Source: Psammoneis japonica (Eukaryota). From it: DNA of 64,000 nt. The DNA is taken from assembly GCA_008632985.1 (NCBI GenBank), contig QPGO01000047.1, positions 62,001 to 126,000 of the forward strand, in the 5' to 3' direction. The translations under genes were made by a program, and so were the position numbers. This document shows positions 1 to 61,650 of this stretch, piece after piece; the stretch's first letter is position 1, and every line of letters starts with the position of its first letter. The notes beneath the pieces are model-generated. The model worked only from the letters and a program-made list of their open reading frames with translations. It made no database searches and was not told the origin of the DNA.

Positions 1-1969
1 GCTGGGTGCTTGCACACTGTCCTGACAAGAAGAGCTTCAGTCTCTGTTTGCCCACTTGCAAAAAAGTGGCAAGCACCATGACAGCTGCTCTCACTGCATC
101 AATTTGCTGCAATTTTCTTTTTGTTGAACTCTCAAAGCACCTGTGCTGTTGAGATGATTGCTGCTGCCTCATTTTGTGTGTTGGCTGCAGGTGCATTTTG
201 GCATGGCTGGGGGAAGGGGGGGGAGACATTGTTGCTTCACCTCTGAGAAGTGAGAAGGCTTGGGCATCATCATCAAATGGTGCAGCAGCCACAAACCCAA
301 CTGCACAGCATGCACCAGCTGATGATTGGCCATGTGATGGGGCAGCACCTCTTGTCTGCAGGGGCACAGGGTTCACAAAGAATGAGCTGCATCACTGTGT
401 TGGCTGTCTGTGCCCAAATGCACCATGGCTTGAAATGAGCATGACAGCATGGAGCACTGCAGGCCAGAGTTTTTGTGCTGCACAAAGTTTTGTGCACATG
501 TCAGCTGGCTCTGCAATCAAAGCAGACAGAGCACAGCAAGATGACAGTGCATGCAGCATGGCCTGACTCCACAGCAAGCATTTGCAGCACACAGCAGAGG
601 AGTGTGGTGCATGCTGCAGGTGTGTGCTGTGTGTGTGTGCAAGTGTGGCAGGGCCACACTCATGTGTGCACAAGTGTGGGGCAGTGGTGCTGGGCCTGAT
701 GGCAGGGAACAGCAACAATGTTGTGCCAAGACAGTTCCCCTGATTTTTCTTCCTGCTGACAACATGAAAGCAATGGAGCAGCCATTGCAGCACAAGGCAA
801 TGGCACAGCACATGACACATGCTGTGGGGTGTCATCCGACCCAGCAACAAATGGCAAACCTTCCAGACCTGACATGTGGGACACTCTCCATGTGACATTG
901 GCCAGCAGATTCTGCATGTGCAAGCTCCACAGTTCAAACATCAGTTGACAAACCAACAGACTTGTTTTTGAAATTTAAACAAACAAGCAAAGTTTGCAGC
1001 ACAGCTGCACCTCTTCACCACACTGAAGTTGTCAAACAGATCACCCAACAACTGCAATCTAAAGTGTCACAGAACACCACCAAAGTTGCACAAAAATGCA
1101 CGTGCACATGGCGCATCTTAAAAAAACACAAACATCCTTGAAACTCAGCAGCAGCATGTGATGTCCTCCCACCTGCAGCTGTTGCTTGGGCAACCAGAGC
1201 CATTGCCATTTTTTGCAAAAAAGGCACAATGACAGACCTCCAATGAAACAAAAATGGAGGAGCCACAACTCTTCTGCTGGAGCACATCAGCTTTGCTGGC
1301 AGATTGCTGGCAGGTGGAGCCTCAGCCAGCCACCAGTTCAGCAGCAGATTTGACTTGCTCCTGCAGGATCACAACTCAAAATTATGAGCTGGAGTTTGGC
1401 ACCTGCTCACATGCATTGATGCTGGTGCTGGTTTGACAGGCTGAAAAAGCTGGTGTGTGTGATTGTTGACAAGCCCTTGAAAGAAATGTCTGCAACAAAA
1501 ATTTTGCAGTCTTTGGCCCTCCATCTGTGAGGACAGCAGCACAAACTCATCAGCTGCAAGGTCCAAATGTCATCAAATCAAGTTGGTGTGGTGGTGGGCA
1601 CATCTGCCACATCACAGAGCCTGCCACAGCACATGCTGTTCAGGCTGACAACTGGCAAACACTGGCAATGATTTGTGTCACATGACTTCCATGTGGCAGA
1701 AGCCATGCAATCTAAAAGCGCACATTGTGCAAGCATGAATGACTCACACTCATTCTGCTGAGCAGTTTTGTGTTGTCTGCATGTTGCATGGCCTCCTGCT
1801 GACACAAGCAAGAAGAGGAGCTGGGGTCTGTTTGCCTCCTGTGTGCAGAAGTGTGGCAAGGACCATGGTGACAACTGAGTCTGACTGCCCTGATTTTCTT
1901 GCAGCATTTTCTTTGTGTTGAACTTGCAATGCTTGCATTGTCAATGGTTGTTGCTGTTGCTGCTGTTGC

Positions 1970-2378
1970 ACTGGGGGGCTTGGGGATGACAAGATGCGAC
2001 GAGGAGCATTGTTGGGGGCTCTTCTGCTGTGACAAAAATTTGTCGTGCCTTTTTTTGTCACTTCTTGGCATGGCTTTGCAGGGGTGCATGAGAAGAGATG
2101 TGGCTCTCACCTCAGAGAAGGCATGGGTTTCACAGTCAAATGGCTGGGCAGCCAAGCCCAGAGCCACCCGGCAGGAACTGGTTGATCTGTGTGGTGGCAG
2201 CGCCTCCTGGGGCAGGGGATGATGCCCAAAGAGTGTGCTCTGCCACTGCTGGTTGCACCCAAAGCTTTTGGATGACTCGCACAATGCCATTTTGGCCATC
2301 TGCTCTTGTTGTCAACACACACAAATTGTGGCTGCTTTCTTCAAGCTGAGAGCGACGCGAGGAGCGACGACGTGGCAC
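1970..2378 (-). pseudogene. Degenerate protein-coding fragment, family not recognised
   Basis: The frame of ORF 2136-2378 continues protein-like (TQINQFLPGGSGLGCPAI*L*NPCLL*GESHISSHAPLQ) through TGA stops that could derive from CGA, and contains no Tyr. Confidence 0.35.
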
Positions 2379-2991
2379 CCCCCAGAGCCTCTGCTCTGTG
2401 GGTTAGCTCTAGACTCTAGAAGAGCAGACTTGGGAGGTGAGTGCAGGAAGGCAAAACAAAAGTTTTGTGGGAGAGGAATGAGGATTTTGGATGAGAAAAT
2501 CATGGGGCTCAGAGAGGAGTTTCGATGACGATTGCATTGCCACTCACTTCCATGCTTTGGCAGCACTTTCTACTCTTGCCCCACCCCTGCCAGCAATGGC
2601 GCATTTGTTTTGATTTTGGAAATGGAGCCCACGGCGGGAACGGAGACTTTGGCTTTCTAGACAATGAAGGGCACCATGGGTTCTCATTCAAGGCATGACA
2701 TGACAAGGGAAGGGTTCCTTCTGCTGCTCACATGCTGTCCAAGTCTTGTGGGATGCGTGATGCAACAGGAGCTGACAAAGCTTCCCATTTCTCTCATCAC
2801 ATTGGCATTTCTGCAGATGCTGTGGAACCACCCCAATTCCTGTTTGTCACAGGACACAGGCACCATCCAAACAAACACCCATCTTGCGCTTTTTGGCATG
2901 AGCGCTCTCGTTCTCAAGCAGTTGTCACCCTCGGAAGTCATGACCAAACTTCACTGTTCTGCTGTAAGAAGACACACCAAGTTTCGAAGTT

Positions 2992-5900
2992 TCACTCGGC
3001 TGCTGCTTCATGTTGGCTGCAGCACTTTTTCCCCGCCCGAGGCACTTTCTTGCAGCGAGCCCCGTTCTTTGTGGTCCCAGCGCAAGTTTCCTTCTTCGTC
3101 ATGATGGACGTGGGAGTGGGATTGTCGGAAGTCTTCTGATTGGAAGCTGGAGGAGCCACGGCTAGATCCTTCTGGGTTGAAGAAGCTCCACCGACCACCT
3201 TTGCCGACAGAGTGGGGGGCATTGGAGTTACATCGTCGGTTGCCTCGACATCCACATCAACAGCCGTCTTGCGACCCCATGATGAACCCATGAGTCGGTT
3301 CTTCCACGAACCACCACCGAGCTTTTTGGCGGATGGAGCAGGAGATGCAAGGGGCTCGGGACGCGACGAGTCCGACGGAGCATGGACTTCTTCTGCTAAA
3401 CGAAAGAGGGTCATTGGATGTGACAACATCAAAGAAGAGGATGCATGCTGGCGAGGCTTGCGCACCTTGTCATTGCCAGCAGCCTCCTTCTTGGTCGGCA
3501 CGTCACATGGCGTCACAGGATCCTCCGACAAAGCGTCGAACCAAACAGGAGTGGGTGACTGGCGTGTCCCATTGTTGCTTCCAGCAGGAGCATCCGCCTT
3601 GATTGATGCCGCGGCATCCTTTGAAATGGGCGTGTCGCGCGCCGTGGGACAATCCTTTGGCCCACTGGTGCCTTTTGCACCATGCTCATTTCGGTTGAAG
3701 AGTTCGTCCAAGACCTTTGGGTTGAGTTCAAAAAATTAAAAAGGGCAAGTGGATTTGGCAAACAATGCAAGCGCAAGCAGGACAATGTACAGCCATGCAG
3801 CAGCTTTTGCACCTCAACCCCGGGGGCGTCCTTGGCATCATCCTTGGGCTTCCCAATGGTGGCAATGTTTGCAACCCCACGTGCATTCCAGTTTGCCTTG
3901 GACGAGTCGTCCGAGACCCACAAAGACAGCATGATCAAAGCGGTGAATGGCTCAGATTGCAGCGTGAGACAATTCAGAAACCAGAGCCAAAATCAGCATG
4001 ACAAAAGCAGTTTGCATGCCTCAGCGACCATCGGCGGCGTGCCGTCCTTGGCGTCAACCTTGGGCCCACCAATGCCGGCAACGTTTGCAACCCCACATGC
4101 ATTCCGGTTTTCCTTGGATGAGTTTTCCGAGACCTTCTATAAAGATGGCACAAAGAGGTGAACAGTTCAGGTTCCAGCATGACAACACACAAACCAGAGC
4201 CAACATCATTGCGAGAAAGTGCTTTGCATGCCTTGTCGACGACCGGCGGCGAGTCGTTGGCGGCGTCATCCTTGGGCTTGCCAATGCCAGCACCGTTTGC
4301 AACCCCGCGCACATTCCGGTTTGCCTTGGACGAGTTTTCCGAGACCTTCTATAAAGACAGCACAATCAAAGTGGTGAATGGTTCAGGTTCCAGAACAACA
4401 ACACACAAGCCAGAGTCAAAATCAGAACGACAAAAGCACTTTGCACACCCAAGTGACGATCGGCGGTGCGCCGTGCGAGGCATCATCCTTGGGCCCACCA
4501 ACACCGGTGCCTCTTGCAACCCCATGCGCCTTCTGGTTTGGGCTGAAGTCAGAAAACATCTCCCATGCAAATGGAGAGAAGGACAAAAGGAAAAAGAGGT
4601 GAACAGATCTGACAACAAGAGGCGATGTCATGCAAGAATGGATCTGATGATGCATTGCGCGAGACAGAGTAAAAAGACGAAACACCACTGCATGCACACC
4701 TTGACAGAAGAGTCATCGGTTTGGTTGATCCGGAACAAAACCCAGTGCGCTTTCCGGCTCGACTTGGACGAGTTGTCTGAGACCCACAGACAACATGACC
4801 AAAGCAGTGAACAGTTCAGACCACAGCATGATGACACACAAGCCAGAGCCAAAACAGTGCGATGTGAGTGGTTTACATGCCTCAGCGACGATCGGCGGTG
4901 TGCCGTGCGAGGCGTCATCCTTGGCTCTGCCAGCACCGGTGCCTCTTGCAACCTGTGAAGACAGCACAACCAAAGCGGTGAATGGTTCTGAATGCAGCAC
5001 AACAACAAAAAAGCAAGATCCAAAATCATTGCAAGAAAAGCACTTTTGCATGCCTCAGCAACGATCGGCGGCGAGTCACAGGCGGCGTCATCCTTGGGCC
5101 TGCCGGCACCGGTGCCTCTTGCACCATGCTCCATCTGATTTGGGTTGGAGTCATCAAGCACACCTCAGCAACGATCGGCGGCGAGTCGCAGGCGACGTCA
5201 TCCTTGGGCCTGCCGGTGCCGGTTGCAGCATGCATGCAGACAAAAGGTCATTTTTGTCACGCCCTTTGTGACATTTAAAGGCTGCAACACGTCGCCGTGA
5301 CACATTGACTCTTGTCAGCAGCTGTGTGTTGCACGGTGCCTCTCGCACCATGCTCCGTCTGATTTGGGTTGGAGTCATCAAACATCTCCCACACCGATAG
5401 AGAGAAGGAAAAAAGGTAAAAAGAGGCCAGTGGATCTGACAACAAGATGCGACATTGTGCGAGAATGGATCTGACGATGCAATGCGCGAGACAAAGCAAA
5501 AACAGGAAACACCAATGCATGCTGCGCACCTCAACAGAAGAGTCTTCGGTCTGCTTGTCTCGGAACAAAACTTTGCTTGAAGAAAAAGCCTTGGGAGTGT
5601 TGAAAGCAGAGGCGCGACTGCAAGGCCTGTGGGTCGATTTGCGCACAGACGCGTTGACGCAGTTTTCGATCTCCTCCGCGGTGAGCTGACCTGTTTTGAG
5701 TTTTTCAGTGTTTTCCAGGGTCACCTTGACCACATCCTTGAGAGTGGGCGACGTGGAACCACCATTTTCCACCAATGTGTTGGTGATGTGCTGATTCCTG
5801 TTGTCACGATTGTGCTGATTCTGAACAAAATTGATGTCGACAGCACCAGGTTTGATTGCATCGTGCCGGTGGCAGGTCGGACAGCCAATTCCGTGCCAGG

Positions 5901-6143
5901 ATTCAGAAGACGAGGTCGCGGCCCGTTTTGACCTTCGGTGAACAGTTCACACCATTTCTGGCAAAACATCCGCCGAGTGTTGCTGTCATTGAGCAAGTCG
6001 AGGTGCGGATAAACTTGCTTCAACTCGGCATCAAAACGATCGATCGCACATGCTCCGGCGAGCTTCTTGATCTCCGGATCCATTTCGGCTCTTTCAATCA
6101 TGGGCTTGAAGAAGGCATCGTAGGCGCTGAAGATAGGAGCCAT
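2992..6143 (-). pseudogene. Disrupted hypothetical gene with a C-terminal CxxxTxxGxRC...CxxH putative zinc-binding motif, interrupted by an internal repeat array
   Basis: ORFs 5721-6218, 5275-5775 and 2992-3711 read as pieces of one protein (ATG 6143, frameshift near 5850). The C-terminus is CAGTTKNGARCKKVPRAGKKCCSQH, where this motif normally has YCxxH. The EHGA(K/R)GT motif occurs in both the last piece and the repeats. Confidence 0.5.
3790..5570. repeat. Degenerate tandem array of ~210-215 bp units plus a duplicated ~200 bp block (about 4540-4740 and 5360-5570)
   Basis: gcaacccc..gcattcc.gttt.ccttgga.gag recurs at 3871, 4087 and 4299. The gatcggcggcg...catccttggg motif recurs to about 5210. 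Confidence 0.85.
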
Positions 6144-6393: not shown

Positions 6394-6483
6394 TTTATTT
6401 AACGCTTGTTTACCTAGCCAGCTAATCAGAAAGGGTGGAGGCGCGCGCGGGTCTCGCACCATGCAGCGCATCATTCATCGTCG

Positions 6484-8145
6484 ATGCGGTCAACCCACAA
6501 CAAACAAAAATATCGAACGCAACAAACTACCATGACATTGACAACGCGCCGCTGCCCAAGCTTAACTCCGTTTTCTCAGTTGCTATCCCAGGTTGTTCAG
6601 CAAGATGGCTCTCAAGACGATGTCACCTCTACCGATACGTACCTTTCAGTCGTCTCATTCAACCTTCTAGCCGAGCTCTATGTCCGTCCATTTGACTTGC
6701 GAACCGGTTGCATTCAGCCCTTTGCGGCATTTGAATGGATATCAGAGGAGGATACTGCTGACATACTGGACATTGAGAGCCGAGGACCAAGGTTACTTGC
6801 ATCATTGAGATCGTGCAATGCCGACGTAATATGTTTGCAAGAGCTACAGCTTGAGCGGATAAAGGAAAATACTAGCATTACTGGCAATTCGAAGAAGAGT
6901 AGCTTTGAATTGCCAACGTGGATCAAGCCCATTGTCGCAGACGAGCCGTATGCTATTGCATTGCCTCCTCAATCAGAACTTGAGGTTATTGCAGCTCGAA
7001 ATGTACGGGTTCTTGGTGCCGATGTTGCTGTTACCTGTGCTGTACTGTACCGCAACGACAGGATGCAGGTTGTCGACGAGAAGTTTCAGGGCGCCAAGGA
7101 TATAGATACCGTTACATCGGTCACTGTGTGTCTAAGGGGTAAGCGTGGATCTCAAAATGCGTCAATGAATCCTGTTGCTATAACGTCTATCCATCTTGAT
7201 GCCACGGATGAGCGGAAAAGAGTCGGTCAGTTGAGGCGATGTCTCCAACGAGCTCGGAATTTTCGATCAAAACGAGAAGAATTCGAACCGATGTCGACAC
7301 TCATTCTCGGGGATTACAATCAGGAATGCTTCCCAGGCTCTTGTGTTTCAGCATTTCTTTCCAGTAGCAATGACGGGGCAAGAGTAGATGATGCAGACAT
7401 GCGAAAAGAGTGCGCCGCTGCTCTTCGTCTAAAAAGGGACGAGAAACCTACGGAGAAGCAAATGAAGGAATGGATTGACTTATACAATGAGACGCGTGAC
7501 ATTGTACGGGATTTGTGCGTCTCGTTGAGTAGAGTAGAAACCTGTGAAACGCGATCTGCATATGATCATGAAACTGTTGAAAATGGGAAGCGGATCATGG
7601 GCCAATGGCGCTTAGACCATATGATTTACACATCAACAACGCTGCATCCATGTGCATACTGGAGCACACTGGAGAGTGATGAGGCATCGTGTCGGATTGG
7701 CCTACCCAATCGAAGATATGGGTCGGATCACTTGCCGATAGGAGCACTGTTTCGCATTTTGCCAGCTCCAGCGTTGTCTGAGGAAGAGAAGGCATCGTTG
7801 CTGCAGACTCTGAGTGATATCTCCAGGAAGCATGAGCGAGAAATTGAGTCAAAGCAAGCAGAACTAGGTGCCGAGCTTGCGGCAATGGAGGCAAATATTA
7901 CACCTGTTGCTTCTGTCGTTGTAGTTCCCGACGTCGGAAGCAGTGGAAAGAAAAACAACAAGAAAGGTCCGCCACCACGAGAAGTTGTAGAATTTATGCG
8001 AAAGCGACGCTCCATTATGAGAGACCTAAAAGCTAGGCACAAGGATGAAAGGAAGCAATGGATATGTACTCTAGGAGACCTGGAGAGACTGGTTATTGAA
8101 AACAAATGCGGCTTCAGTTGTAGTCAGTGGATGGAACGGGGTTGA
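6484..8145 (+). CDS. Endonuclease/exonuclease/phosphatase (EEP; CCR4/nocturnin-like) protein
   Basis: 553-aa ORF with EEP motifs SFNLLA, ADVICLQE, SIHL, ILGDYN, RLDHM and YGSDHLP. Alternative start at 6532. Confidence 0.9.
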   Translation: MRSTHNKQKYRTQQTTMTLTTRRCPSLTPFSQLLSQVVQQDGSQDDVTSTDTYLSVVSFNLLAELYVRPFDLRTGCIQPFAAFEWISEEDTADILDIESRGPRLLASLRSCNADVICLQELQLERIKENTSITGNSKKSSFELPTWIKPIVADEPYAIALPPQSELEVIAARNVRVLGADVAVTCAVLYRNDRMQVVDEKFQGAKDIDTVTSVTVCLRGKRGSQNASMNPVAITSIHLDATDERKRVGQLRRCLQRARNFRSKREEFEPMSTLILGDYNQECFPGSCVSAFLSSSNDGARVDDADMRKECAAALRLKRDEKPTEKQMKEWIDLYNETRDIVRDLCVSLSRVETCETRSAYDHETVENGKRIMGQWRLDHMIYTSTTLHPCAYWSTLESDEASCRIGLPNRRYGSDHLPIGALFRILPAPALSEEEKASLLQTLSDISRKHEREIESKQAELGAELAAMEANITPVASVVVVPDVGSSGKKNNKKGPPPREVVEFMRKRRSIMRDLKARHKDERKQWICTLGDLERLVIENKCGFSCSQWMERG

Positions 8146-11850: not shown

Positions 11851-12751
11851 TCAGTTGGAGGAATCACAAATCTCCGGTTTCTCACGCAGCAACGCATAAA
11901 TAAGGCTAGGACCCAACGACTCAGCTTTGGATATCTCTCCAAGAATGCTATTGTTCATCCATCCAGGCAAATTAATACTCGGAGTAGCACACGAATACGT
12001 GTGCAATGGTCGTCGTTTTAGGCTTGTCAGCAGAACCATTTGCCTGTTGACTTTCTCAAACACGTGAGCCCATAAACAAGGATGTACGTTGTCTTTCTCC
12101 AACAGCTGTTTGCTTTGCGCTTCCAACAAGGCAAGAGTAAGAAGCACGTTTTGTTTCTCAGTAGATAAATCAATCGGAGTCTTCCCATCTCGATCCTTGG
12201 CGTGCAAGTCAGCACCATGGTCAAGTAGCACTTTTGCCGTATCAACACCACTGTCGCCAAGCACTTTAGCCGAATGATCCACGAATTTTTTACTACACAA
12301 CAGATGCAACGGCGTTCTTCCCAACTGGCTCATCAAATTGACATCTGCTCCATTGTCCAACAGCACTTGAATGGTAGCTTGAGCTCTCAAGGAATGGTCT
12401 ATAACAGAGGCTTTATGAAGCGGCGTTTCTCCATGAATGTCGAAAACGTCCGCGGTTTCTCCGTAATCCAAAAGCAGTCGCAAAATGCGTGAAGAGCCTA
12501 AACCAACCACAACGTGTAGCGCTGTTACCCCCTCGCCATGACGGGAAAACGTTGCTTTACCCACATCAGCGCCTTGTTGTAGCAGAATTTCCACCATTTT
12601 GTATCGCCTTGTGCCTTGTGGCAACGGCGAAGACAAGTGGTGTCATGCCGTCCTTTTCACCGTTCACGTCCACTCTGTCATCTAAGCAAGCTTCGACTTC
12701 CGCTGTTGTCCCATTTTTGATACGCCAGAAGATGTCTCTGACAGTGTCCAT
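11851..12751 (-). pseudogene. Ankyrin-repeat protein frameshifted by a 7-bp tandem duplication
   Basis: ANK motifs GMTPLVFA, GVTALH, GETPLHKA, GRTPLH and GKTPIDL. ccttgtg is duplicated at 12607-12620; removing one copy joins the two ORFs. Confidence 0.85.
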
Positions 12752-12959
12752 GACAAGCCAAGCAGGGATTCAAGGTATAAAGCGAGAACAGAACGACGAA
12801 ACAAGCAATCAATGCAACAACGAGCAATCAGTCTACTTCTGCATCTGCATGATGGATGTACAGCTGCGACGACGCACCCCGGTATTTTTGAATAAGGAAA
12901 TTATGCATTCGACATAGAAATTAGTCTACTTTTTTCACACCGGTACGGAACACACAGCC

Positions 12960-15880
12960 GTTGACAAACGATGACACAAGCGTCCGTTGAATCCACAACC
13001 TTTGATGATCAAAATCTCTTTGGCATGTGCCAAAAAATGAAAAACCTGTGTCAGCTGCATCTCTTGCGGACCGCACGCTTTGCTGTTGGTTTCCTGTTGA
13101 GAGCTCTTCAGAACTTGACACAGAACAATGGCGCGGCATTGTGTCATGTCAAAAGTGTGTTGGCGATGTCAAACAGATTAAATGCAAAAAGAAATCTTGG
13201 TGTTGCACCTGGGTTCTTGCGTGAGCCAAGCCCAAATGTGATCACCTGATGGCCGCACAGCTGTGGGGCACTGCCAGAGAGAGGTCCACCTGCACACCTG
13301 ACCCACGTCAACCGATGTTGAGTGGTTTCATGTGATGTCATGATGGTCAGTGGGGGGTGGCAAAGATCAGCAACTTTTTGCCAACCTCCATGATGAGAAG
13401 CGAAAATGCCTCACATTGTTGCATCATGTTTGGTGCTCTTCTTGGTGAAACATGCCTTGCCAGATGTCGTTGTGACAGCTTGGCCAACTTTTTGCCATGG
13501 CTTGCGCAAGTCCTGAGGAGGCTGCTGGCTGGCATGACAGCACTTTGGACAATGGACATTGCTGTCACCATGGACTCACCAGATCTCTCTGCTTGCAACA
13601 CCTTTTGCACTTCTTTGCTGGCCGTTGCTGCTGCCAGCACTCTGCAAGCCAGTGGCAGCAGCGCATCATTGCGCAAGAGGAGCCCTGGCTTGACGTCGCC
13701 ACATTTGCAAATGAGACAAGCACCTTTGTTGAGTCTCCCAGAGCAGCACTCAAGTTGGCTGTCAAATGAAGACAACCAGCAGAGAATCATGTTGCTGAGA
13801 AGCTCTCAACTCACTCCTCTGGAGTCTTGACATGATGTGAGCAACTGCACCTTTGGGGAGGCAGCACACTCTCAAGGTGGTGTTGTCGTGGCAGCTCTCA
13901 TGCAGATGTCATGCTCAAGTGCTTGAGCTGCAGCACAAGTTGGAAAAAGAGAAAAGAAAAAGAACAGGCAATGGTTGTGACAAGCACAGCAGGGCACAGC
14001 CACCCACCCTCCTGCCAAAGAGGGTGCTGCTTGGCTCAACAAGCACACACAGCTTTTGTCAGTCAACAGAAGAAAATGTGGCAAAGCTGCTCAACATTGT
14101 CAATGTCATTGTGGTCATTTTCTGAAACATGAGCTGTGTGGCTGCCAATTTGAAGCTCTTGGCTCACTTGCCATCTGCCACAGATGTGCTGATCGCCTGT
14201 CTCCATGATGCAGGAGAAGTGCCATGTGCTGGCTGAGAGAACAGACTGGCAACAACCTGCGCATTTTCTGGAGGCAAAGACAGCATGGCAATCACCAACA
14301 GCCATGTGGCAATCTTGCTCTTCACGCCTCTTGCAGACCTGTTTTTTTTTAAATGATGTCCAGAAACTGCCTTCATTTGCAATCAATGCTGGGCCAATTG
14401 TCTTGATGTTGACAGAGGCTGTGCACCATGTGATTTCAATCAAGCATCATTGCCGGCAGCATGCCGAGTGACAAACTTCACTTTCAACTGCCAACATGCA
14501 TGCCAAAGGCACAGCCCAGCCAGGCAAGCAGCATCATCTCTCAGACAATTTTCAATTGGAGCTGAAGACCATGGTGCTGGCACCAGAAGACCACCAGAAG
14601 ATGCAGGCTTGTTTGGGCCTCAGCTGCACACCAGCGGTGGTGCAAAATGCATTTTGCACATGCTCGTCAATCCAGCTGCCCTGCCAGATTGCAAAAATCT
14701 GTGATGCATGCAATGTCCTGTGGCACGCCATCATGGTCTAGAAATCAATTTCAAGGCTGCACTGGAAACCACTCAAGGTTCAATGTGGGGTTCAGGATCA
14801 ATCCAACGAATTCTGCCACAGTGGCTGCAGCCTCTCTTGTCGGGCATTTGGGACCCTCACAAGATGCCTTGTGCAACAAGTCAGAAATTTCAAAGTCATT
14901 TGCTCAAAATGTGCAGCAGGAGTTGCCAACCCAGGTGCAGCTCTGGACTGTGGAGATGTGTTCAAACTGGCTTGCAACTTCGATGATGTCAAGGGTCAAG
15001 GGCATGCCATTTGAGATCCTTGGTGTGTGAAAAGGCATCAGAGCAGATGGGGCACAACACAGCCTTGAATGATTGGGTCAGCACCTCAAACTTTTTTTGT
15101 GAAACTGAAATGTTTGCGATGAGAAAGAGGATGAGTTGGGATTGATCTCAAAAGGGTTGAAAACAAGGGAAATCGAAGTCGCACATTCCAAAAATTGGCT
15201 CACATCGCTGCAAAATTTGTCAACACTTCAGCCATTGGCTCAAACATGGTCTCAAGTGTGTGGTTGGCTTGGCATGAAATTATGTGGAGAAGAGTGGTTC
15301 ATGAGAAATCTTGACTGCACACCAGATGCAGCAGAGCATGCTTCCCTGCCGTCTCATCAAACTGGCACCCGCTCCACTGAGAGCAACAGCCTCTTCCACA
15401 CAATGCATTTTCCACAGGGATGCAATGTAAAGTGGCACATCTCCATTTGTGTTGAGAACATCTGTGGGTTGAACTGCCAAGTGCAGTGCCTTCACCTCCT
15501 GGCCAAGACAGACAAGAAAGAAGACATCAAACTCTTTGCCCACATTGGCGCTCCTCTGTGGTGAGGAAAAGTGATGTGCGAGGCTGTGCTTTTCAAGGTT
15601 CACACCTGCTCCACCATCAATGCAAGCTTTGAGTTCTGCCTTTTTCCCACAATTGGCTTGCCAGAGAAGAGTTTTGGGGGACAGCACCCTCCATGGCAAG
15701 CCAAGCAGATTCAAGAAGGCAAAGAGCAAGAACAGAGTGAGACGCAACAAACAACCGACGGAAATTGCAAAAAAACGAGCACTCAGTCTGCTCTTCTCCA
15801 GTGCCGGCAGCACTGATCCAACATGCACAGCGCCATTGTAGCACTCAACATCTTGCAAATTGGAAAATTGCGGAAAAAAA
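12960..15880. other. TpA- and CpG-depleted domain B
   Basis: Very few TA over about 2.9 kb and a TG/CA excess, flanked by normal-composition DNA. Confidence 0.85.
15280..15700 (-). pseudogene. Degenerate ankyrin gene paralogous to 11851-12751
   Basis: AELKACIDGGAGVNLEK..ANVGK..GQEVKALHLAV..DVLNTNGDVPLYIAS parallels AEVEACLDDRVDVNGEK..ADVGK..GEGVTALHVVV..DVFDIHGETPLHKAS. Confidence 0.7.
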
Positions 15881-16141
15881 GAAAAAATCAGAGGAGGTCG
15901 AAAGAAATCGAAATGGATAGAAAGGACCGCGCGTCCGCGCGACAGTCCAGCCGGTTGTCATGTCCGACGCGCCAATTTTGGCCACTGGGCTTCACTTCCA
16001 AAAATACGTATGTAGAATTATACGTCGAATACCGTACAGTGGCAACAGTCGCCTTCGCGTGATCCGCGCACGCGCTCAGATTTTTGTCGCCGCCGTTCCG
16101 CATTGCAAACTTCTGCCTCCAGATTCCAGATGCATGCCACC

Positions 16142-51098: not shown

Positions 51099-51987
51099 TT
51101 GGAAATCGAGATAGTTTTACTTCTGAAAATGTATTCAACGAAATGACAGCGGATACTTTTGACGCTAACCCACTATGGGGGCTATCCTCAAGGACGCAGA
51201 CCAATTCTTTGCTCATAGGGAACGAGGATCATCAGCGCCTATCCCGAACTCGGAGGACCATTAGAACCACTCAGCCAAGCACAACTTGTATCTTATGCTA
51301 ACACACTAATCGTCAAGGAGGGTCAGGGAATTTCAGTGACATTTGGTGATCTTGGATGTAACAACGATTAAACGGTGTGCCTATGAAAACAGCCACGAAT
51401 ACAAGAACCATTCTACCGAGGATATGAAACGAAGAGGGAGTGTGAGCGTATGTGCTCATCGCCAGAGTTAGGTTGTCGCGGGTATCGGCGAGAACGTGCT
51501 TGAAAGGAACGAGAAATGAGCAGCTATTGTCGTTGACAGAGAGATCATAGCTGGACAAAGTCGCGAATGAATTGCTACCGCCGCCATTGCTGTTGCTCAG
51601 ACTGAATTATCACGCAATGTTTTAGAAAGAGAATGAACTTATTGATGCGCCCGGGCTCTTGTGATACTCAGGGAGGTGTCGTGATCGATCATTGTTGCTT
51701 GTCAACCTACTATGATCGACTTGAAGCGGACGGGAGAAAAATGCAAGGAAGGGTGACGATTTCTGGGACAATCGATCCGAGGCCATCGTTTGAGTGCATT
51801 TCATCAGAGCATACCTTGTTCTAAGTAGATACCGTGAACGTAGTAGCTTGAGAAGCGCCTTGGCACCAGTAGGGCAGTAATTGCTCCTTATAAAAAAACG
51901 GATAGCAAGTTATAGTGCTCAACACGACGGCAGCAGTATTAGCGACTAGTGAGAGCAGTTCTTGGATACTGTGCGACGAATGAAACA

Positions 51988-53480
51988 TCAAATGTTGCAC
52001 GTTGGACCCCTCAAGGTGCCAAGATTTGATTTGAAAACCGAGAAGTTCAAAAAGCCTTCTTCAGCCTTTCGAAGGAATAGAACGTCTTCGTCACAAAAGC
52101 GAACTTCATTCTGGCCCTTTTGGAGAAAGGCAAAGATATCGACAAATTCTGAAGGGCCCGCCTTGATTGGAGCATCTAAATGTGCCGGAACGATTCTTTC
52201 AAACTTCCACTGTGACACCCTATCCACCCATTCTTTCAACGTGTCGCCTGAGTTTCCACGACTATGATAATTTGTATAATTGGAAAAACAGCCGGTTTCC
52301 CGTTGCCCTTGTAAACATCGAATGCCTTTCGCTCTGCCTCTTCACTCTTCCATGAGAAGGGCAACCATCCGCCCCATCCGTACTTGTAGGGTCGCAAATT
52401 CAGCAAAGGTTTCACTCCAAGGTCAGCCACGGCAGCTCCAGGAAAAAAAAATTAAACAAGAGCACAATTCTACGCCACCCCTTTTGTCGATTCTCGGGTG
52501 TGTCCTCTACAAGTTGTGTGGGTGCGTCGCGGGCATGAAACAGCAAAGCTCTCGTGTACTCTGGTTCTTCTGTCAGGATTGCTGGTGGCTCATCGTTTAC
52601 GGCAATCACAGTGTCACAAATTATGAGAGTGCCAGACGCCTTGTGCCATACTGCCACGTCTTGAAACTCTGAAGCCGGACCGGGCTTTACATCAAGGACT
52701 TCGTGCTCGAGTTCTGAATTCCATAGTTGAGTACCTTTGCTCGATGACGGCAATGTCTTTGTCCATGAAGGTAGACCAAGAAACTGATCAGGAAGATTTA
52801 CAGGAAAGGCATATTGCTTGTCTGTAACATAAAAGTCTGCGGACGGAAAGGCTCGTGCAAAAGGTCCGGCATTCACCTTGTGCTCCACAGCTACTGAAGG
52901 AAGCAAAATTGTACGTACAGGTCCGTATTCGTCAATCAGTGGCTGTAGGAGCTGCAAGCATTCTTTTGTGGGAGCAACGGGTGCATACACAAAGAGACCG
53001 TTCGACAAGGCTGCTACCGTCATGCGGATAGGAACATGAACATAGTATATTCCAATCAATTGATCAAACGTCCAGACACCCTCCGCCACTTTTTTACGAA
53101 TGGTCTTGCGACGGGAATAAGGCGCCACAGGCAACGCAGTCCAAAGTGGCCATTCGGATTCTTTCGTAATTTCGGCTCGGGCTTGTTGCGAGGAAGAGGC
53201 AAGCGTTGCTGCTGTCAAGGCAGGGGCTTGTAGTACCCGAGATAGAACGGATCGTCTGTCTTCTGCGAAACAGCCTGTGGAGCAATCATCCTCGTCTTTA
53301 CCCGACTCGACAGCTGAAACGAATAAGTAGTACCGGTATTGATCGGAGCGCAGTAACATGTCTTCAGACTGACAGGGACTAGTGATGAGACTTTTCCCAA
53401 CGTAACCAGCAGCGAAAGCACAACATACTGCAAATACGTTGCTCGCCTCCAAAAAACATGAAACCAGAACGTTGCACCAT
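51988..53480 (-). CDS. DUF4336 family protein (probably plastid-targeted) with at least two 1-nt frameshifts
   Basis: WPLW..LP.APY..RKTI, VPIRMT, YAPVAPT.EC, VEHK and W.FERIVPAHL.API are DUF4336 motifs. Frame breaks at the A run 52443-52451 and near 52263. Confidence 0.85.
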
Positions 53481-53829
53481 GTACAGCGGTAATGTCGTTC
53501 ATCCCTCCTCTCACAAGATCAGGCTGCAAACTATTCCTTCAAAGCTGCATCCGATCCAACAACTATCACCTATCACAATCTTCGCCGAAGTATTGTCTTG
53601 CGCAAAATAAAAAAATTAAAAAGATAGGGACTATAACTACGGTAACTCCAAACTTCGCATAAAATAAAAGCTCGTCCGTCGCTCGTGTCTTCCTTTGATG
53701 TTTGCACCCGCCGCATCCACCCGCCCAGACTACACACCTCTCTCTACTCCAGTGGCCACCCCGAGTGCCGGTGCTGTAGCTAACTCTACCCCAGAGAGAA
53801 TAGAGGATGCAGGCAGCTAGATTGCCCAG

Positions 53830-56330
53830 CACACTGAGAGGAGAGACCCCGTTGAGTGAGATGCGAAAAACAGTTTGTGCGCTCTCTTCTGTCTTGTGGA
53901 AATCAGAGCAGCAGGTGACAACGAGAGGTGAAAGCGCTGTGCATGACCATGTCATGTTCGATCTCTCCATGCACTGCATGAAATTGCTTGCAAGCTTCAC
54001 TGCATTGGCAGGAGCTTCCAATGCAATGAACTCAAGGAAAAAGCATCTGAGAACAAGAGAAGGACCTCCTCCTGCACCAATGATGTGCTGTTGTCCAAGC
54101 CGACAAGCTGCTTGAAACAAAGCCAACTCACTCTGATTCTCCACATTGCCCAGCAAGAAAATGCATGCATCCTTGTGCAAGCAACACCCAAAAATGAGCA
54201 CAAGCAGCTTGAGTTCCAACAACCCAAGCCCCGCCATTGTGAGCAGCACTGCCAACACAAGCCCCCTTGACAATTGAAAGGACACGCCAGTCAGAATGCT
54301 GCAACCCATCTTTTGAGCCCAAAGATGAGCTTAAAATGTCTTGAGATGGACTGGCAACCCAAGTCATGAATGAATGAAAACAATGCTTTGCATGGCATGG
54401 CAGCACGTGTGTGTTCCATCAACATGAGATTGGCGCACACACACTCACACAACAAGATTGTGTCAAGGCAGATGGGTTGGTGAATGTCTTGAGATGGTGG
54501 GTTGTCAATCTGAACCATGGATGAGCAAACAATGCTTTGCATGGCATGCACATTTGTGCTCTGCAAACACTGGTGTGCACATTGAGCTTCCACCCAGATG
54601 CAGTGTTTTTGCATGAATGACCACAGTGTGTTCTGGGAGACAAGAATGGAGTCCATCATGGGTGGGAACCTGACCAAGCCCAACTGCTTTGAGGTGCACA
54701 AACAGCACATCAAGAGCAGCCAAAGATGCCAAGAACAGAGCCTCTGCTGGGAGTGCAGGTCCTCAGTGCAGGCAGGTGCCACACCAGCTGCTGCAGATGG
54801 AAGGGGGCAGCCAAAGAGGCAGAAGAAGCCCCAGGAGAAGGAGCATGCAGTCAGAGCTGGCCATTGTTCCAAGAATGAGTGAGAGGGCTTGATCAATGAC
54901 AAAGAGACCCAAGCAGGAAAGCAGCAGCTTTGAAGCCAGGGTGAGGCAGAGCACACTGGTGCAAGGTCAGCATGGCTGTTGCCACTGCTGGCAAGGACAA
55001 AATGAAGAGACGAGAACATGGTTGTTGTTGAACCACTCCTTCTGTGAAAAACTTTTGTCATGTGGTGGCCTTCAAGTTGCACAGTGTGAAAACCAAAAAG
55101 CCTTCTTCTCATTGTGGGCCCATTGTGTGAGATGCCCCACACTTTTGCAAGCAGACAACCCAGCCCATCAATGGTGCATCATCGTGGGTTTGTGTTGGAA
55201 GGCAAGCAACAATGAAGCTGTCCTCACAGCTGCCACCATCAAAAATGCACCCAAGTGTGTCAAGATGGCTTTCACATGTGGCTTGTGGAGTTGACAACAA
55301 AGCTTTGTCATGCAAGGTGGGCTTGAGCAAGGCCTGCTGGCTGCCATGGGGGTGAAGGTGTCCAAATGCAAAGCTGTTGCTGGTGTTGAAGTGTTCATTT
55401 TTGTTCTCACACAACTTGCCCCACATTCTGAAAGCACAAAACCAAATCTTGCTCATGCAAACTGAGATCAAAAAGATGAGAAATCAAAGAAAGGAGAGTC
55501 TGAAAAGGCCTTTGCTTGCAGCTGTCCAGTTTTGTAGATGGTCACTTCATGCTCACATTGGTGCCAGCCAAGATTCTGTGGGAAAGGTGCCTGCATGAGC
55601 TTCCTTGTCACTGAGAGCCCCCAACTGTTGTTGCAAGCAACAAAGATTGTTTTGGGCTTTTCTGCAAGAAGAGAGCAGTTGTTTCCTGTTGCAAACCTTC
55701 TTGATGAGCTTTTTAGTGGTGGTGCAAGAAAGTGAGGCTGGAGACAAGAAATCAAAGCAAGTGCAGCAAGGCTTGCAAGTGTTCTGCAACATGAATGTTT
55801 TGGGTGAGCACCCAAGCACTTGCCTGTCCGAGCACCCGCTGAAGATGTTTTGGATGAGCCTCCGAACATCATTGAAACATTGAAAACAAGAAGTCAACAG
55901 AGGAACAGAGCTGTTTGTGTGTGTTGTGAGATTTTTGAGAATTCCATTGACCTTTGCAATGACCCCAAAGATCAGCTGAATTTGAAAGATGTCTTTTCAG
56001 CACCACAAACAATGGCAACACAGACAAAAAGAGGAAGGAGGTGGCAACACATTGCTTTCTGAGAAATGTTGGCCATGTCAATGTCTGAACCCTCAGACAA
56101 GGCAGGCGGCCAACCCTTCCAAATGCTGCAACAGACCACAAAACTTGTTCTCCTCTTTGGCAGCAATGATGTCATCACATGGTGTGCACTCTGTCAACAA
56201 GCAGTGCTGGGATCTTTTTTGTGCTGATCACTTTCTTTGTGCATGTCTCATTCCCTTGAGCAACAATTTTCACATTGAGAGAGGGAACATTGACCATGTC
56301 ATCTGCATGACAGGCTTCATCATTAGATTG
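53830..56330. other. TpA- and CpG-depleted domain F
   Basis: About four TA seen in about 2.5 kb, and CpG nearly absent. Confidence 0.88.
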
Positions 56331-57801: not shown

Positions 57802-58169
57802 AGAATGAAAGGTGTGATGTTGAAGATTATGGTTGTATTACACAAGTCAAGTAAATATCTCTAGTAAGTAGGAGGTTTGGTATTGCGTGGTACCGGTAGC
57901 TCTAGTAGATGAGTAGGTCTCTAGAAGTGTCCTATGGGTGATTCGTTAGCATAAGTTATTGTGTCGCATTGACTGCTCTCGATTTAGGATGCTGAGTACG
58001 AGAATTACGGGTTGCAATAATGAGCTGCACGGAGAATGCAATGGCTATCACAGTGTAGAAGTGGGCGACTACTGCTAGTTGTTGCCTGCGCTCTCTACAG
58101 ACAAACAACATGAATCTTGCGTTTGTTTAAAACATCGCAAACTGTCATAAACTGTGAAGAACACACGAC

Positions 58170-58610
58170 ATTTTGAGCATTCTCGTCAATGCAAAAACCG
58201 TGGCCTGTCATCTCAGAACAGCTCTTGCAAACAGAAAAAGGTTCCAATCAAAACCACAATGATTCCAACAATCAAAAAGTACCTTGCCAACTATAAAGTC
58301 CCTTGAGTTTGAGACAAAAGAGACACCAGCAAGATGAGGGCAATCACAGAGCCCATGCAACAGCCCACCAAATCCAAAACCACGCCCAAGGGCAGATCAT
58401 TGATGGCTAAAAAGGCTGCAACAACCCATGCCAAGAGAGTTGTCAGCATGATGTGAAAGAAAAAAACACTGACTGACATCCACCAACCACCAGGCATCTG
58501 CTGGAAGCAGCAACTTTGACCACACACCACTTGCCACAACTGTGCTGCTTTTCATGGTGGACAGACAAAAGACAGCGATAATTTCTGACTCATGACTTAA
58601 AGAAATGGCA
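58170..58610 (-). pseudogene. Hypermutated duplicate of the 3' end of the amino-acid transporter gene at 63100-63525
   Basis: Colinear nucleotide match, and LGVVLDLVGCCMG occurs in both copies. Confidence 0.92.
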
Positions 58611-61600
58611 CATGACCCTGAGCCACAGTGCTGGTGAAACAGAGCAGATCACCCACCACAACATCACCCAGACAAAGAGCAAAATGTCTTTTGCGTTCCA
58701 TGATTTTTTGCTCTTCTGACGGGGTTCAATGCCTTCCTTGTTGACCAGGGACAGAGGCACATTGCAGGCTGTGTCCTGAGAAAAAGACCATGACTCCTTT
58801 TCATCTTTTGTGACTCCAAGGATGTGATGACCTCCTCTCATTTTTTTGTCCTGTCAAGCCTTCCTCTCCAACCTTGCCTTTTTCCATTGGGCTGAGGTGG
58901 TTGCTCTAAAAACACACCCGCTGTTGCAAGGCATGCACAGATGCCCATCACACATGACACTCTTTCTTGCCACTGCCGGCACAGCGCCAAAGGCAGCAAG
59001 AAAGATTTGACAGCTTTGAGAAACCTCTGTGTGCTGTGTGAGACCCACCACATCCTGCAGCGGTCTTGGCACTGCTCCAAAAAAATGACCAAGCCTGCGT
59101 GTTTGTGTGCAAAGGCAGAGGATCCTTTCAAGCTTGACCCTCTTGCCTTTGTGAGCAATGAAGAGTGCATGGCAGAGCAGGTGGACCAGCCACTTTGCTG
59201 AAATGTCCTGTCAGGTGCTTTCACAATGACGATGCAGGGCACAAGCGGTGTGCCCAACAACCCAACAATCAATGTCAAATTTGTGGCAGGTCAAAGACAA
59301 CATGTTCTCATGGCAAAAGCTTTGTGTGGCAGCTGACCCCTTTTTGTCCAGGCCAGCTTTTGCACCCACTTTTGCATCATTTCCTTCAAGGACTTGCTCC
59401 TGGAGCTGATGGCAGGCATTTTGTGGGCTGCATCATTTGTTGGGAAATGAAGTCCAAAGACCCTGGCCATTCCAAATTTGATGCTTTTGAGCACAGCTCC
59501 TGTGCTGAAACAACCCGCCGAAGAACATCCTTTGTCAATGCCAAAGACAGCTGGGGGGGGGCTTCCCCTCACACATCCCATCAAGGAAGAATGCCCAGCT
59601 GCTGCCTTCCCAGAGAAATGCACTTTTCTGCCTTGGTTTCACGACCGCACCCTCTGCATGTTTTTCCATGTGAGCTCTTGTGCAGATGTCACCTTTCTCC
59701 AATGGTGTGACAACGGCTCTCCTCACATGCCTGTTCTGACCACTTTTTTGCTTCATTGATGTGCCTTCATTTGTTTCATCATCATGAGCAATTCATGCAT
59801 TGGAGTTTGGCCAGCATTGAGCCCTTTTGGTTTGTTTGCTTGTCATTCTTCTCGGCATTTTTCTTTCTCACATGCAAATTTTCCACACAAATGCGAAAGT
59901 CATTTCAGATGGTCAACTTGCTGGACTGTTGGCTTCTCTCTGTCCTCACCTCTCAGGCGTCAACACATCCCCCCTCCACTCATTGTCAATTTAAGTTCCC
60001 TGCTTTTTGTGGCAAGCAATGTTCCACTCTGTTGCAGCTCTCAGAAGCTTCAATTTGAGGCCAACTCAGCATGCTGCACCAGCCTTTTTCCCATGTGCCA
60101 ACAACTCTGCACAAGTTTGAGCACATGCTCTGCACGTCTGAAAAGTCATTTTGGATGAACAACCCACCAAGCTGTTGACTGTGCTGCTCTTTGTCCATGC
60201 CTCTTGGCAGGTGTGAACAACTTCCCTTGCATCTGCTGTTGGCTTGAGCCATCTGCATCATGTGGCAAACAACCCCCCATCATTGCTGATCCCAGAAGTT
60301 TGAGTTTGGGGCCAGCTCAATGTGGGTCAGTGTTTGCTCCATGCCCTGCTCTTTCTCACATCAAAGCTTTTCCAGCAGGCGGCCCACTTTGCCTTTGCAG
60401 CTGGGTGCAGCCCCAAGAAGAAAACCCAGTTACAGCATGAGGGCATTGAGCTCTTTGACTTTGATGTCTTGTTCCAATGGTCCTGTTTTTGCTGCTGCCA
60501 GCTGTCTCCGTTGGGCACCACAGACTCACGGCATCAATCTTGGCCAATTGTTGCACACTCCTGCTGCGCAGTGTGCTGGGGGTGTGGGTTGGCTTGTGCT
60601 GCTGGCCGGAGTTGCAGGGTGGAAAAGCGCAACAGTGAGCCACTTGGCACCACACTGGCAGCAATCTGCATGCAGCTGAAATGTGCAATGTCCAAGGTTG
60701 GCCGCTCTTGTGCAGTGCCACACCGCGAAATCTGTGGCCGTCGTGGCTGGCACCCCACCCCCGCGCACAATGTCATGCCACAAAAGTTGTGGAAACTCAG
60801 GACCCTGTATCTTGACCTTTTTTCCCACCTCTGAAGGCACACTCTCAGAGCAAGACAGAAAGGATCAAAACAGCCAAAGTGGCTTGGAGCACACAATTGC
60901 TTCAGTTGCAGTCCAGCTGCAGATTTGCGAGCTTTTTTTTAATGAGTGACGCTCACTTTCAAGGAAGAAGCGAGTGCCGCAGATCTTTTCACCGTGCCTT
61001 CATTTTTTCTTTCACCCAAATCGTCAGACAACACAACCCGACACTTTGTCCATTTCACCAGTTGAGCGCGTTTGGTGCAAACAAAGTAGACTGCTCAGTC
61101 AGTGCAATGCCACAACGGGCGGGTGTGGATTTGCTGTGGATTTGCGATTTCATTGTCATGCACGTCTTGTGACTTCTTGCTTCAAGTTGCAGCAGAAGTC
61201 ATGTGGCATTCGCGCGGAAGGGGGGGCTGCCATCACGCTTCTGTTCTGGTGTGGGTTGATGATTTGGAGTGCATGATGAGAAAAGCAGCAGGCACAAGCA
61301 TGGACAATGGCTTGAGACAATGGCTCCTCATTTTTCGATGGACGCTCACTGCGTTGGTTTGACTGTGTGTCTGAGTGCATCAGCAGTTCTTTCATTGACT
61401 GGTGGTGCATGCATTGTTTGCAGGATTGTGAAAGGGAAGAAGATTGACAAGCTGCACCACGCTTGATGCTGGAAATCTCGATCTCAGACATCGTCTTCAC
61501 TCTGGCCGCATTTCTGAGTCCACACATGATGCCGTCAGCGACAGGCATCGTCACCTCCAGGGGAAGCAATGCGTCAGGCTCGGCATCTGCGACGTTTCTT

Positions 61601-61650
61601 GTTGCTGGAAATCTTGCCGTTAGCTCCCACTGCTGTCAGCTCAGTTGCTG
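58170..61650. other. TpA- and CpG-depleted domain G, fading into the 7TM gene
   Basis: Very few TA between 58620 and 61650; TA is abundant from about 61830. Confidence 0.85.

Follow-up and report, generated by a model that had tools for sequence, protein, structure and literature searches.

The stretch analysed here is a 64-kb window of Psammoneis japonica contig QPGO01000047.1 (assembly GCA_008632985.1, positions 62,001 to 126,000), in which two kinds of DNA alternate. Seven blocks that have lost nearly all of their TpA dinucleotides, and that hold gene fragments and duplicated sequence, are interleaved with DNA of ordinary dinucleotide composition in which live genes are found, among them ankyrin, amino acid transporter and UDP-sugar dehydrogenase genes (Table 1). 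All compositional results and all results on duplicates refer to this one window. The blocks are very probably silent, decaying DNA under a regional, strand-symmetric hypermutation of TpA to TpG and CpA of the kind seen in the chlorarachniophyte Bigelowiella natans, here driven near to saturation.

Over the whole window, the observed/expected ratio (O/E) is 0.37 for TA, 0.75 for CG, 1.43 for TG and 1.38 for CA. In sliding windows of 1 kb, TA O/E lies at 0.00-0.11 within seven intervals and at 0.4-0.87 between them. Block boundaries were set by a two-state hidden Markov model run on the window; the seven blocks it delimits sum to 28.6 of the 64 kb (~45%), and their edges lie within ~100-330 bp of the coordinates of the seven TA-poor domains that a first-pass annotation had noticed, whose existence is thereby borne out. 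The window contains 1,521 TpA in total. The blocks hold 114 of them, compared with ~1,140 expected at the density of the interleaved DNA; the frequency is 0.0040, against 0.0399 in the other 35.4 kb. By segment, TA O/E is 0.02-0.14 in the blocks and 0.52-0.67 in the DNA between them. The longest TA-free gap, in block 6, measures 1,203 bp, compared with 308 bp in 200 simulated sequences of 64 kb generated by an order-1 Markov model trained on the normal segments. Across 126 windows of 500 bp TA O/E is bimodal, with a trough at 0.2-0.4 (41, 13, 5, 7, 14, 15, 14, 9, 5, 1 and 2 windows in successive bins of 0.1); the bimodality that the annotation had anticipated is present within the window.

Table 1. 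TA-poor blocks, relics within or at the edge of them, and duplicated sequences in the window (positions are those of the window).
Feature	Position (strand)	TpA	TA O/E	CG O/E	Description
Block 1	1-6120	26	0.073	0.51	extends past window start
Block 2	12945-16004	7	0.036	0.33	
Block 3	23322-29932	22	0.053	0.42	
Block 4	34238-37615	14	0.065	0.56	
Block 5	42739-46341	33	0.142	0.81	least depleted
Block 6	53819-56323	3	0.018	0.12	most depleted
Block 7	58295-61620	9	0.043	0.32	
Transporter relic	58146-58615 (-)				edge of block 7; copy of 3' part of neighbouring amino-acid-transporter gene
Live transporter parent	63073-63538 (-), ORF 63138-63983				Aa_trans gene, TpA intact
Ankyrin relic	15280-15800 (-)				block 2; copy of 5' part and flank of ankyrin gene 12260-12850
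Control duplicate pair	33079-33764 and 51926-52627				both outside blocks, 87% identity
LTD (lamin-tail) repeat relic	23444-26271 (+)				three ORFs; Pfam LTD, 101, 43.5 and 95.9 bits
NUDIX hydrolase relic	26441-26866 (-)				Pfam NUDIX, E 1.3e-4, 22.4 bits
Sulfotransferase fragment	34955-35164 (-)				Pfam Sulfotransfer_1, E 3.9e-5
Tudor-knot-like repeat relic	42519-43481 (+)				64 homologues, best E 9.4e-33; Pfam match on best homologue
beta-COP (adaptin) fragment	45573-46330 (-)				residues about 231-488 of about 975, three frames

The edges of the blocks are step-like: outside, TpA is met every 5-60 bp right up to the boundary base, and the first TpA within stands 84-513 bp further in. Compared with one another, the 13 block edges have no evident motif in common, nor do they share a terminal repeat or a target-site duplication. 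The edge of block 7 (about 58170-58295) splits a single duplicated segment (57987-58615), the left part of which (57987-58170) retains TpA. Since this edge lies inside a duplicated segment, neither the duplication nor an insertion junction determines its position. At block 4, the right edge touches the first bases of an ankyrin open reading frame (ORF) at 37547-38641, and a run of about 17 G residues is found at about 34200-34225, some 20 bp to the left of the block.

The dinucleotides that replace TpA indicate the type of change. Along with the tenfold fall of TA, CG declines from 0.0577 in normal DNA to 0.0285 in the blocks, while TG goes up, from 0.0707 to 0.1034, as does CA, from 0.0767 to 0.1052. 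The combined loss of TA and CG (0.065) is close to the combined gain of TG and CA (0.061), and the total of pyrimidine-purine (YpR) steps is 0.241 in the blocks and 0.245 outside. The blocks therefore differ from the surrounding DNA by transitions at YpR steps, from TpA and CpG to TpG and CpA. The remaining dinucleotides are little shifted: AA O/E is 1.24 in the blocks and 1.14 outside, and GA and AT frequencies stay near constant. GC content is 49.8% in the blocks and 47.8% outside. Both strands are affected alike, with (TG-CA)/(TG+CA) within 0.04 in each block. Strand-coherent patches of TG or CA were sought in 200-bp windows of the blocks and were not found; the variance of (TG-CA)/sqrt(n) in such windows is 1.31 in the blocks and 1.64 outside. 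As to base composition at large, the lowest GC content of the window (33-38%) occurs at 41001-42000, around the sole assembly gap (an N run at 41389-41665).

The losses of TpA and CpG are co-located in the same seven blocks, and the loss of TpA is the faster or more complete of the two. CG O/E is 0.12-0.81 in all seven blocks, against 0.93-1.07 in all seven normal segments. Within block 1 it varies under a TA O/E that is uniformly near zero, from 0.02-0.2 in the first 2 kb to 0.6-0.87 at 2.5-5.5 kb, where TA O/E is 0.05-0.11. The simplest reading of the CpG loss would be that the blocks are, or were, CpG-methylated. Block 1 also contains a tandem array with a 216-bp unit, of which 3.3 copies lie at 3827-4540 and diverged copies reach to about 5573; the copies are 68-94% alike.

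Surviving TpA are spread over all blocks without clustering, and their tetranucleotide context departs from that of TpA in normal DNA (chi-square 165 over 16 tetranucleotides, p 2e-27). We express survival as the count in blocks over the count in normal DNA, scaled for 28.6 and 35.4 kb; survivors may include TpA newly arisen by later mutation, and the figures are relative survivals, not rates. Survival is lowest, at 0.016, for RTAY (5 in blocks, 397 in normal DNA), which presents TAY on both strands. It reaches 0.084 where TAY is present on one strand (52 and 762) and 0.30 for YTAR, with TAY on neither (57 and 235). Of the 114 survivors, 25 stand in TTAA (survival 0.65), and CTAG is among the better survivors (0.16). 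Per strand, survival increases from TAT (0.043) and TAC (0.054) to TAG (0.12) and TAA (0.22). The hot motif is thus 5'-TAY-3', and TTAA is largely spared. The roughly multiplicative pattern of survival fits independent hits on both strands with TAY as the hot site.

Outside the blocks, TpA is kept even where the encoded protein hardly requires it. In 14 live ORFs with a family match or clear coding character (5,959 codons), TA O/E stands at 0.43 for codon positions 1-2, at 0.56 for positions 2-3 and at 0.60 for dinucleotides that straddle a codon boundary, and in non-coding DNA at 38.5-41 kb it is 0.83-0.87. The retention of largely synonymous TpA in live ORFs implies that the excess rate of TpA mutation is not applied everywhere. 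The process is regional, being either aimed at the blocks or merely kept out of active chromatin.

The direction of change was read from duplicated sequences, with the live copy treated as a proxy for the ancestor. The transporter relic is ~80% identical to its live parent. None of the 13 parental TpA is kept (8 became CA, 4 TG and 1 AA), and of 22 parental CpG the relic keeps 4, with 9 turned into CA and 6 into TG. Of parental TG and CA, 86% and 81%, respectively, persist, and 0 of 48 parental CpA turned into CpG. Transitions per base amount to 0.48 at TpA, 0.38 at CpG, 0.073 at other A and 0.164 at other T; an excess of transitions at TpA over other contexts of A is what the first-pass annotation had expected of a comparison between pseudogene and parent. 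The ankyrin duplication was recovered by BLAST on purine/pyrimidine-recoded sequence, where E-values are uncalibrated and the lower matches noise-like. Its relic keeps 0 of 16 parental TpA and 2 of 24 CpG, in an alignment poorer than that of the transporter pair. A tblastx search of the blocks against the window gave no additional parent genes. The control pair has both of its copies outside the blocks; of 18 and 26 TpA, 12 are kept in each case, and the copies differ by 43 transitions and 39 transversions. Judged from these alignments, the two relic-parent pairs together with the control pair indicate the polarity of the change as a loss of TpA.

The recognisable content of the blocks consists of dead genes of host type, and the transporter, ankyrin and beta-COP relics are demonstrable copies of host genes with a live counterpart elsewhere. 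A Pfam scan of the 231 stop-to-stop ORFs of 70 aa or more that the blocks contain gave no match to viral or transposon hallmarks (capsid, polymerase, reverse transcriptase, integrase, transposase) at E <= 0.01, although heavy mutation may mask older foreign genes. The role in genome defence that had been proposed for the system is not borne out by this content, with no viral or transposon family among the 231 ORFs and copies of host genes in three relics. The named relatives of the beta-COP relic, among the 120 best matches listed, are diatoms, and together with the gene content they point to a diatom; the UDP-sugar dehydrogenase ORF has its best match at 78% and no close relative among named ones. 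The LTD relic has bacterial proteins as its named relatives (40-52% identity), and a foreign origin of this piece is possible. Contigs of a second sequencing run (X2, see below) align to parts of the LTD relic (24779-25657) at >=85% identity and then enter unlike, TpA-containing sequence, which suggests that intact LTD paralogues may exist elsewhere in the genome.

The relic proteins bear the mark of the TpA loss at their tyrosines. At five Tyr columns conserved in 109 homologues, the beta-COP relic has His three times, Cys once and Phe once, and no Tyr. The LTD relic, compared at 1,738 aligned homologue-Tyr positions, has Cys at 34%, Phe at 21%, Trp at 11%, Leu at 7%, His at 6% and Tyr at 4%; its Tyr content is 0-0.6%, compared with 2.5% in the homologues. 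The Tudor-knot-like relic reads HC at the conserved YY of its homologues. The replacement of conserved Tyr by Cys and His, noticed at the outset, holds in these three relics. In TA-free DNA, TGA is the sole stop codon left, long ORFs arise in all six frames, and inside the blocks many of the 81 stop-to-stop ORFs with 150 aa or more lie across one another in different frames. With stops reduced to TGA, a frame that stays open in a block is no sign of a functional gene.

The stretch was found in one sample, and no RNA sample is listed for it. Run X1 (140.7 Mb of Logan contigs, word depth ~62) spans positions 12001-21771 and 22572-32000, where single contigs join blocks 2 and 3 to the flanking genes with 6 and 3 letters differing from the window, so that both blocks are reproduced in this contig build. 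All 6 letters at which the first contig departs from the window are transitions, of which two lie at CpG (15118, 15728), two are of the type TA/CA and two lie in other contexts. The two TA/CA sites, where the window has TA and the contig CA, are located at 16009, the right edge of block 2, and at 16543, a third codon position 540 bp outside it; these two sites hint at continuing activity near the block edge. At 13140-13141 the window reads TG and three other X1 contigs read CA, a pattern that would fit paralogues resolving one ancestral TA or CG both ways. Of 30 bins, 15 are covered by contigs of run X2 (29.9 Mb, with splice-like joints); within the blocks their depth is at most 3.8, in an edge bin, and ~2 elsewhere. 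We do not take the low X2 cover of the blocks as evidence of silence.

The signature of the window is the same as that reported for B. natans, and the window reads as its saturated footprint in a second lineage. In that species, integrated viruses undergo regional A:T>G:C hypermutation at TpA only (Mettrop et al., bioRxiv 10.64898/2026.01.13.699255). Mutation-accumulation lines revealed it in two integrated viral regions of 186 kb and 25 kb, at ~6e-7 per site per generation against 3.5e-10 elsewhere (~1000 times the baseline), with activity in 11 of 15 lines; A>G and T>C made up 230 of the 231 mutations found there, and the authors place all of these on TpA (bioRxiv 10.64898/2026.01.13.699255). 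The larger region is single-copy and transcriptionally silent, the long-term footprint is low TpA with high CpA+TpG, and an ADAT2-like DNA adenine deaminase is proposed as a defence against foreign DNA, the Discussion noting the 5' U/T preference of adenine deaminases (bioRxiv 10.64898/2026.01.13.699255). The view that the system is not a described one, taken in the first-pass annotation, is therefore out of date (bioRxiv 10.64898/2026.01.13.699255). The core of what that annotation proposed, a second, regional process mutating TpA on both strands apart from 5-methylcytosine decay, repeat-induced point mutation (RIP) and GC-biased gene conversion, is supported by the mass balance of dinucleotides, the duplicate pairs, the equality of TG and CA and the synonymous TpA of live ORFs. 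A literature search naming diatoms returned nothing on TpA loss or hypermutation in diatoms.

Both systems show A>G and T>C changes on TpA, on both strands and in confined regions of a nuclear genome, known here from fixed differences and not from de novo mutations. The cut-offs of the B. natans study, which are the 5% tails of that paper's own genome, are both passed by 21 of the 64 1-kb windows, in 4 runs of at least 3, and the TpA cut-off alone by 32 of 64. The differences are several. The host is a chlorarachniophyte there and a diatom-like stramenopile here. The loss is at saturation in the window (TA O/E 0.02-0.14) compared with a Rho of 0.45 in the B. natans region derived from a nucleocytoplasmic large DNA virus. 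The targets are viral there; the recognisable ones here are fragments and duplicates of host genes, and neither a viral nor a transposon hallmark turned up. CpG is lost from the very same blocks here, and goes unmentioned in the sections of the preprint consulted. Relative to those same sections, the TAY > TAG > TAA preference, the step edges, the co-location with CpG loss and the host duplicates as targets are new details.

Any account of the blocks must accommodate changes that are transitions, specific to TpA, polarised, regionally restricted and bounded by steps, all of which are properties of the window itself. In the account we consider very probable, the blocks would be silent, decaying stretches of chromosome carrying gene fragments and duplicates, presumably in methylated or silenced chromatin. 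A regional, strand-symmetric hypermutation that prefers 5'-TAY-3' and largely spares TTAA would drive TpA to TpG and CpA, and a slower decay of CpG to TpG and CpA, most simply by way of cytosine methylation, would proceed in the same blocks. By turning Tyr codons into Cys and His codons, the hypermutation might itself kill the genes it covers. The chemical step might be carried out by a TadA/ADAT2-like enzyme that is drawn to silenced chromatin and deaminates adenine in DNA to inosine. We advance this step tentatively, as one that may well prove wrong; it is favoured because of the strict requirement for a 5' T and because of the proposal made for Bigelowiella. It is rather unlikely, but conceivable, that TpA editing is no response specific to viruses but forms the mutagenic arm of chromatin silencing in the algae of the stramenopile-alveolate-rhizarian (SAR) group, with a DNA adenine deaminase acting on any DNA under cytosine methylation or heterochromatin, host duplicates included.

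Several points weigh against the account of regional hypermutation in silent DNA. TA-poor blocks are absent from our outside control, which comprises 31 loci taken from metagenomes, each 4 kb or longer and surrounding a beta-COP gene of a diatom or a relative (634 1-kb windows on gene-centred contigs), in which the minimum TA O/E is 0.21 and 2 of 634 windows fall below 0.25; gene-dense diatom DNA does not generally have the feature. The assembly may itself have been built from run X1, and the agreement of X1 with the window is a second contig build, not an independent replication. The polarity depends on the functional copy being ancestral and on small counts (13 and 16 TpA). The sole sign pointing to silenced chromatin is the loss of CpG, and the step-like edges would suit a process acting on defined segments better than a slow, chromatin-linked one. 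With viral targets in B. natans and none among the 231 ORFs here, the blocks may also be the work of a different system with the same signature.

Among mechanisms, we rank adenine deamination highest, followed in order by biased T:G repair, thymine oxidation, a masked global bias, Pol-eta-like repair and a RIP-like process. Biased repair would have a thymine glycosylase of the TDG or MBD4 type, brought to methylated DNA to reverse 5-methylcytosine deamination, also 'correct' replication errors with G opposite the T of TpA, fixing TpA>TpG; it would be the eukaryotic analogue of CTAG loss in enterobacteria. TDG acts on CpG.T in the first place and on TpG.T after it. The strand symmetry and the sharing of all seven blocks by TpA and CpG loss, the latter expected if methylation recruits the enzyme, speak for such repair, as does the precedent of very-short-patch repair and CTAG (PMC5337935). 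It is nevertheless improbable: CpA should be fixed to CpG as well, a change absent from the transporter pair (0/48), and CpG is depleted, not enriched. A process capped by the rate of polymerase errors is also ill-suited to near-total loss of TpA against ~7-16% transitions elsewhere, and to the 1000-fold rate in B. natans. Since the signature can equally be written as T>C at 5'-RTA-3', a TET/JBP-type oxygenase producing 5-hydroxymethyl- or 5-formyl-uracil at RTA in silenced DNA, a modified base that would mispair with G and appear as A>G at TAY on the opposite strand, would account for it too, including its regional and strand-symmetric character. Modified thymines are concentrated at TpA in dinoflagellate DNA, and formyluracil mispairs with G. 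The sole study of the signature favours adenine deamination, itself without proof (bioRxiv 10.64898/2026.01.13.699255), and we hold thymine modification to have a small chance of being correct. A smaller one still attaches to a continuous genome-wide bias, under which selection or transcription-coupled repair would retain TpA in genes and their flanks and the blocks would be merely the oldest unconstrained DNA. All recognisable block content is dead (fragments, frameshifts, Tyr loss), in line with this, and a simple equilibrium estimate requires a 35-100-fold excess of the TpA rate, comparable to that of methylated CpG. The TA O/E of 0.56-0.60 at synonymous and codon-boundary positions of the 14 live ORFs and the 0.83-0.87 of non-coding DNA at 38.5-41 kb argue otherwise, and so do the stepped edges, one of which leaves TpA in place at 57987-58170 within a duplicated segment. 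If transcription protects TpA, however, the genome-wide bias merges with regional hypermutation.

The remaining explanations are less credible again. Pol eta prefers WA sites. A patch repair dependent on a Pol-eta-like enzyme, in which T:G mismatches derived from 5-methylcytosine recruit non-canonical mismatch repair with A>G errors nearby, would place TpA and CpG loss in the same blocks. We regard it as very improbable, given that AA is undepleted, that A after A, C or G changes at 0.073 transitions per base against 0.48 at TpA, and that TpA loss exceeds its supposed CpG trigger, for instance at 2.5-5.5 kb of block 1. A homology-triggered, RIP-like process on duplicated DNA finds some encouragement in the duplicate nature of all relics whose partner is known (transporter, ankyrin, beta-COP fragment, LTD modules), and in the presence in diatoms of DNMT4, a relative of fungal RID (PMC9998398). 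We give it very little credence: a single copy is mutated while the functional transporter retains 13 TpA, the 3.3-kb block far exceeds the 0.6-kb duplicated segment whose left part stays unmutated, the 87%-identical pair outside the blocks is untouched, and RIP makes TpA where the blocks lose it. Least credible of all are a sequencing or assembly artefact and the arrival of foreign DNA with a native scarcity of TA, even if a single sample holds the sequence and the named relatives of the LTD relic are bacterial. The X1 contig build (word depth 62) shows the blocks in continuity with normal genes, the relics are broken up and frameshifted as opposed to intact genes with miscalled bases, and host duplicates display a polarised loss of TpA relative to their live neighbours.

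Known systems share parts of the signature. RIP resembles it as a regional, dinucleotide-specific transition hypermutation that destroys genes and leaves sharply bounded, skewed blocks. It differs in that RIP is a C>T change mostly at CpA that creates TpA, whereas TpA is removed here with GC nearly unchanged, and in that RIP strikes both copies and is bounded by the repeat, whereas here the functional copy is unmutated, an edge cuts through a duplicate and the 87% pair is untouched. RIP as a class was rejected on the loss of TpA, the near-equal GC and the mutation of a single copy. Deamination of 5-methylcytosine would account for the CpG part of the change and its confinement to the blocks, CpG being depleted only there and 15 of 22 parental CpG having become CA or TG in the transporter relic; it cannot remove TpA, the loss of which is more complete than that of CpG. 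In diatoms, transposable elements are methylated, methylation in Phaeodactylum depends on DNMT5, and the RID-related DNMT4 is widespread, with its function unknown (PMC9998398). GC-biased gene conversion, which favours AT>GC in every context and increases GC, was rejected on the near-equal GC content and the low rate of A>G outside TpA (0.073 per base).

The tie between very-short-patch repair and the scarcity of CTAG in enterobacteria reportedly goes back to Bhagwat and McClelland (1992). It resembles the present case as a methylation-tied activity that erodes a TA-containing word to TG and CA (PMC5337935). The bacterial effect is genome-wide, limited to CTAG and modest (PMC5337935), unlike the blocks, where CTAG survives at 0.16 and RTAY at 0.016. 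Deaminase systems (APOBEC3/AID; ADAR, ADAT/TadA; engineered TadA base editors) likewise produce clustered transitions through context-specific deamination. APOBEC makes strand-biased C>T changes, where both strands are equal here; ADAR edits A in many contexts of double-stranded RNA and is not known outside animals, where AA, CA and GA are spared here. ADAR-type editing produces strand-coherent A>G clusters with a graded 5' preference of U>A>C>G. Such hyperediting followed by reinsertion was rejected on the lack of strand-coherent clusters, the undepleted AA and CA, the occurrence of relics on both strands and edges unrelated to gene ends. We know of no natural DNA adenine deaminase tied to this signature.

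A regional process specific to TpA was first reported in 2026, from one chlorarachniophyte and with the enzyme unknown, and the window adds a second lineage in which it is at saturation. The same signature in a diatom-like genome suggests that the process may be widespread in SAR algae and able to reshape large parts of a genome. Diatoms are major primary producers, and several species have genetic tools. The TAY motif with the sparing of TTAA, the co-location with CpG loss, the step edges and the host duplicates offer handles that make the mechanism testable. Should the editing be an arm of chromatin silencing throughout SAR algae, the TAY preference would mimic the U33-A34 anticodon-loop substrate of ADAT2/TadA, pseudogenisation would be irreversible and proceed mainly through Tyr to Cys and His, and near half of the region would have been made TA-free. 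The process would then be an ancient eukaryotic counterpart of RIP with the opposite chemistry, common to stramenopiles and rhizarians, and would point to a natural editor of adenine in double-stranded DNA. A natural enzyme with that activity on chromosomal DNA would interest genome engineers. Gene finders, for their part, will call spurious Tyr-free proteins in TA-free blocks.

Some observations concern the genes between the blocks. A 575-aa ORF (6418-8145) adjoins block 1 and matches the endonuclease/exonuclease/phosphatase family at 23.7 bits, compared with a Pfam cut-off of 24.5; its product may be a cellular enzyme or the endonuclease of a retroelement. tRNA genes were looked for, and none was found. 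Within the plus-strand SNF2/RING/helicase ORF (18875-20917), X2 contigs skip 85 and 212 bases at 19511-19890, with ends CT..AC, that is, GT..AG on the minus strand. At the UDP-sugar dehydrogenase gene (21500-22600), extra contigs of X1 and X2 differ from the window at many positions resembling third codon positions, as in a 412-base contig with 43 differences; they could stem from a paralogue, from a second haplotype that has diverged or from a related organism present in the culture.

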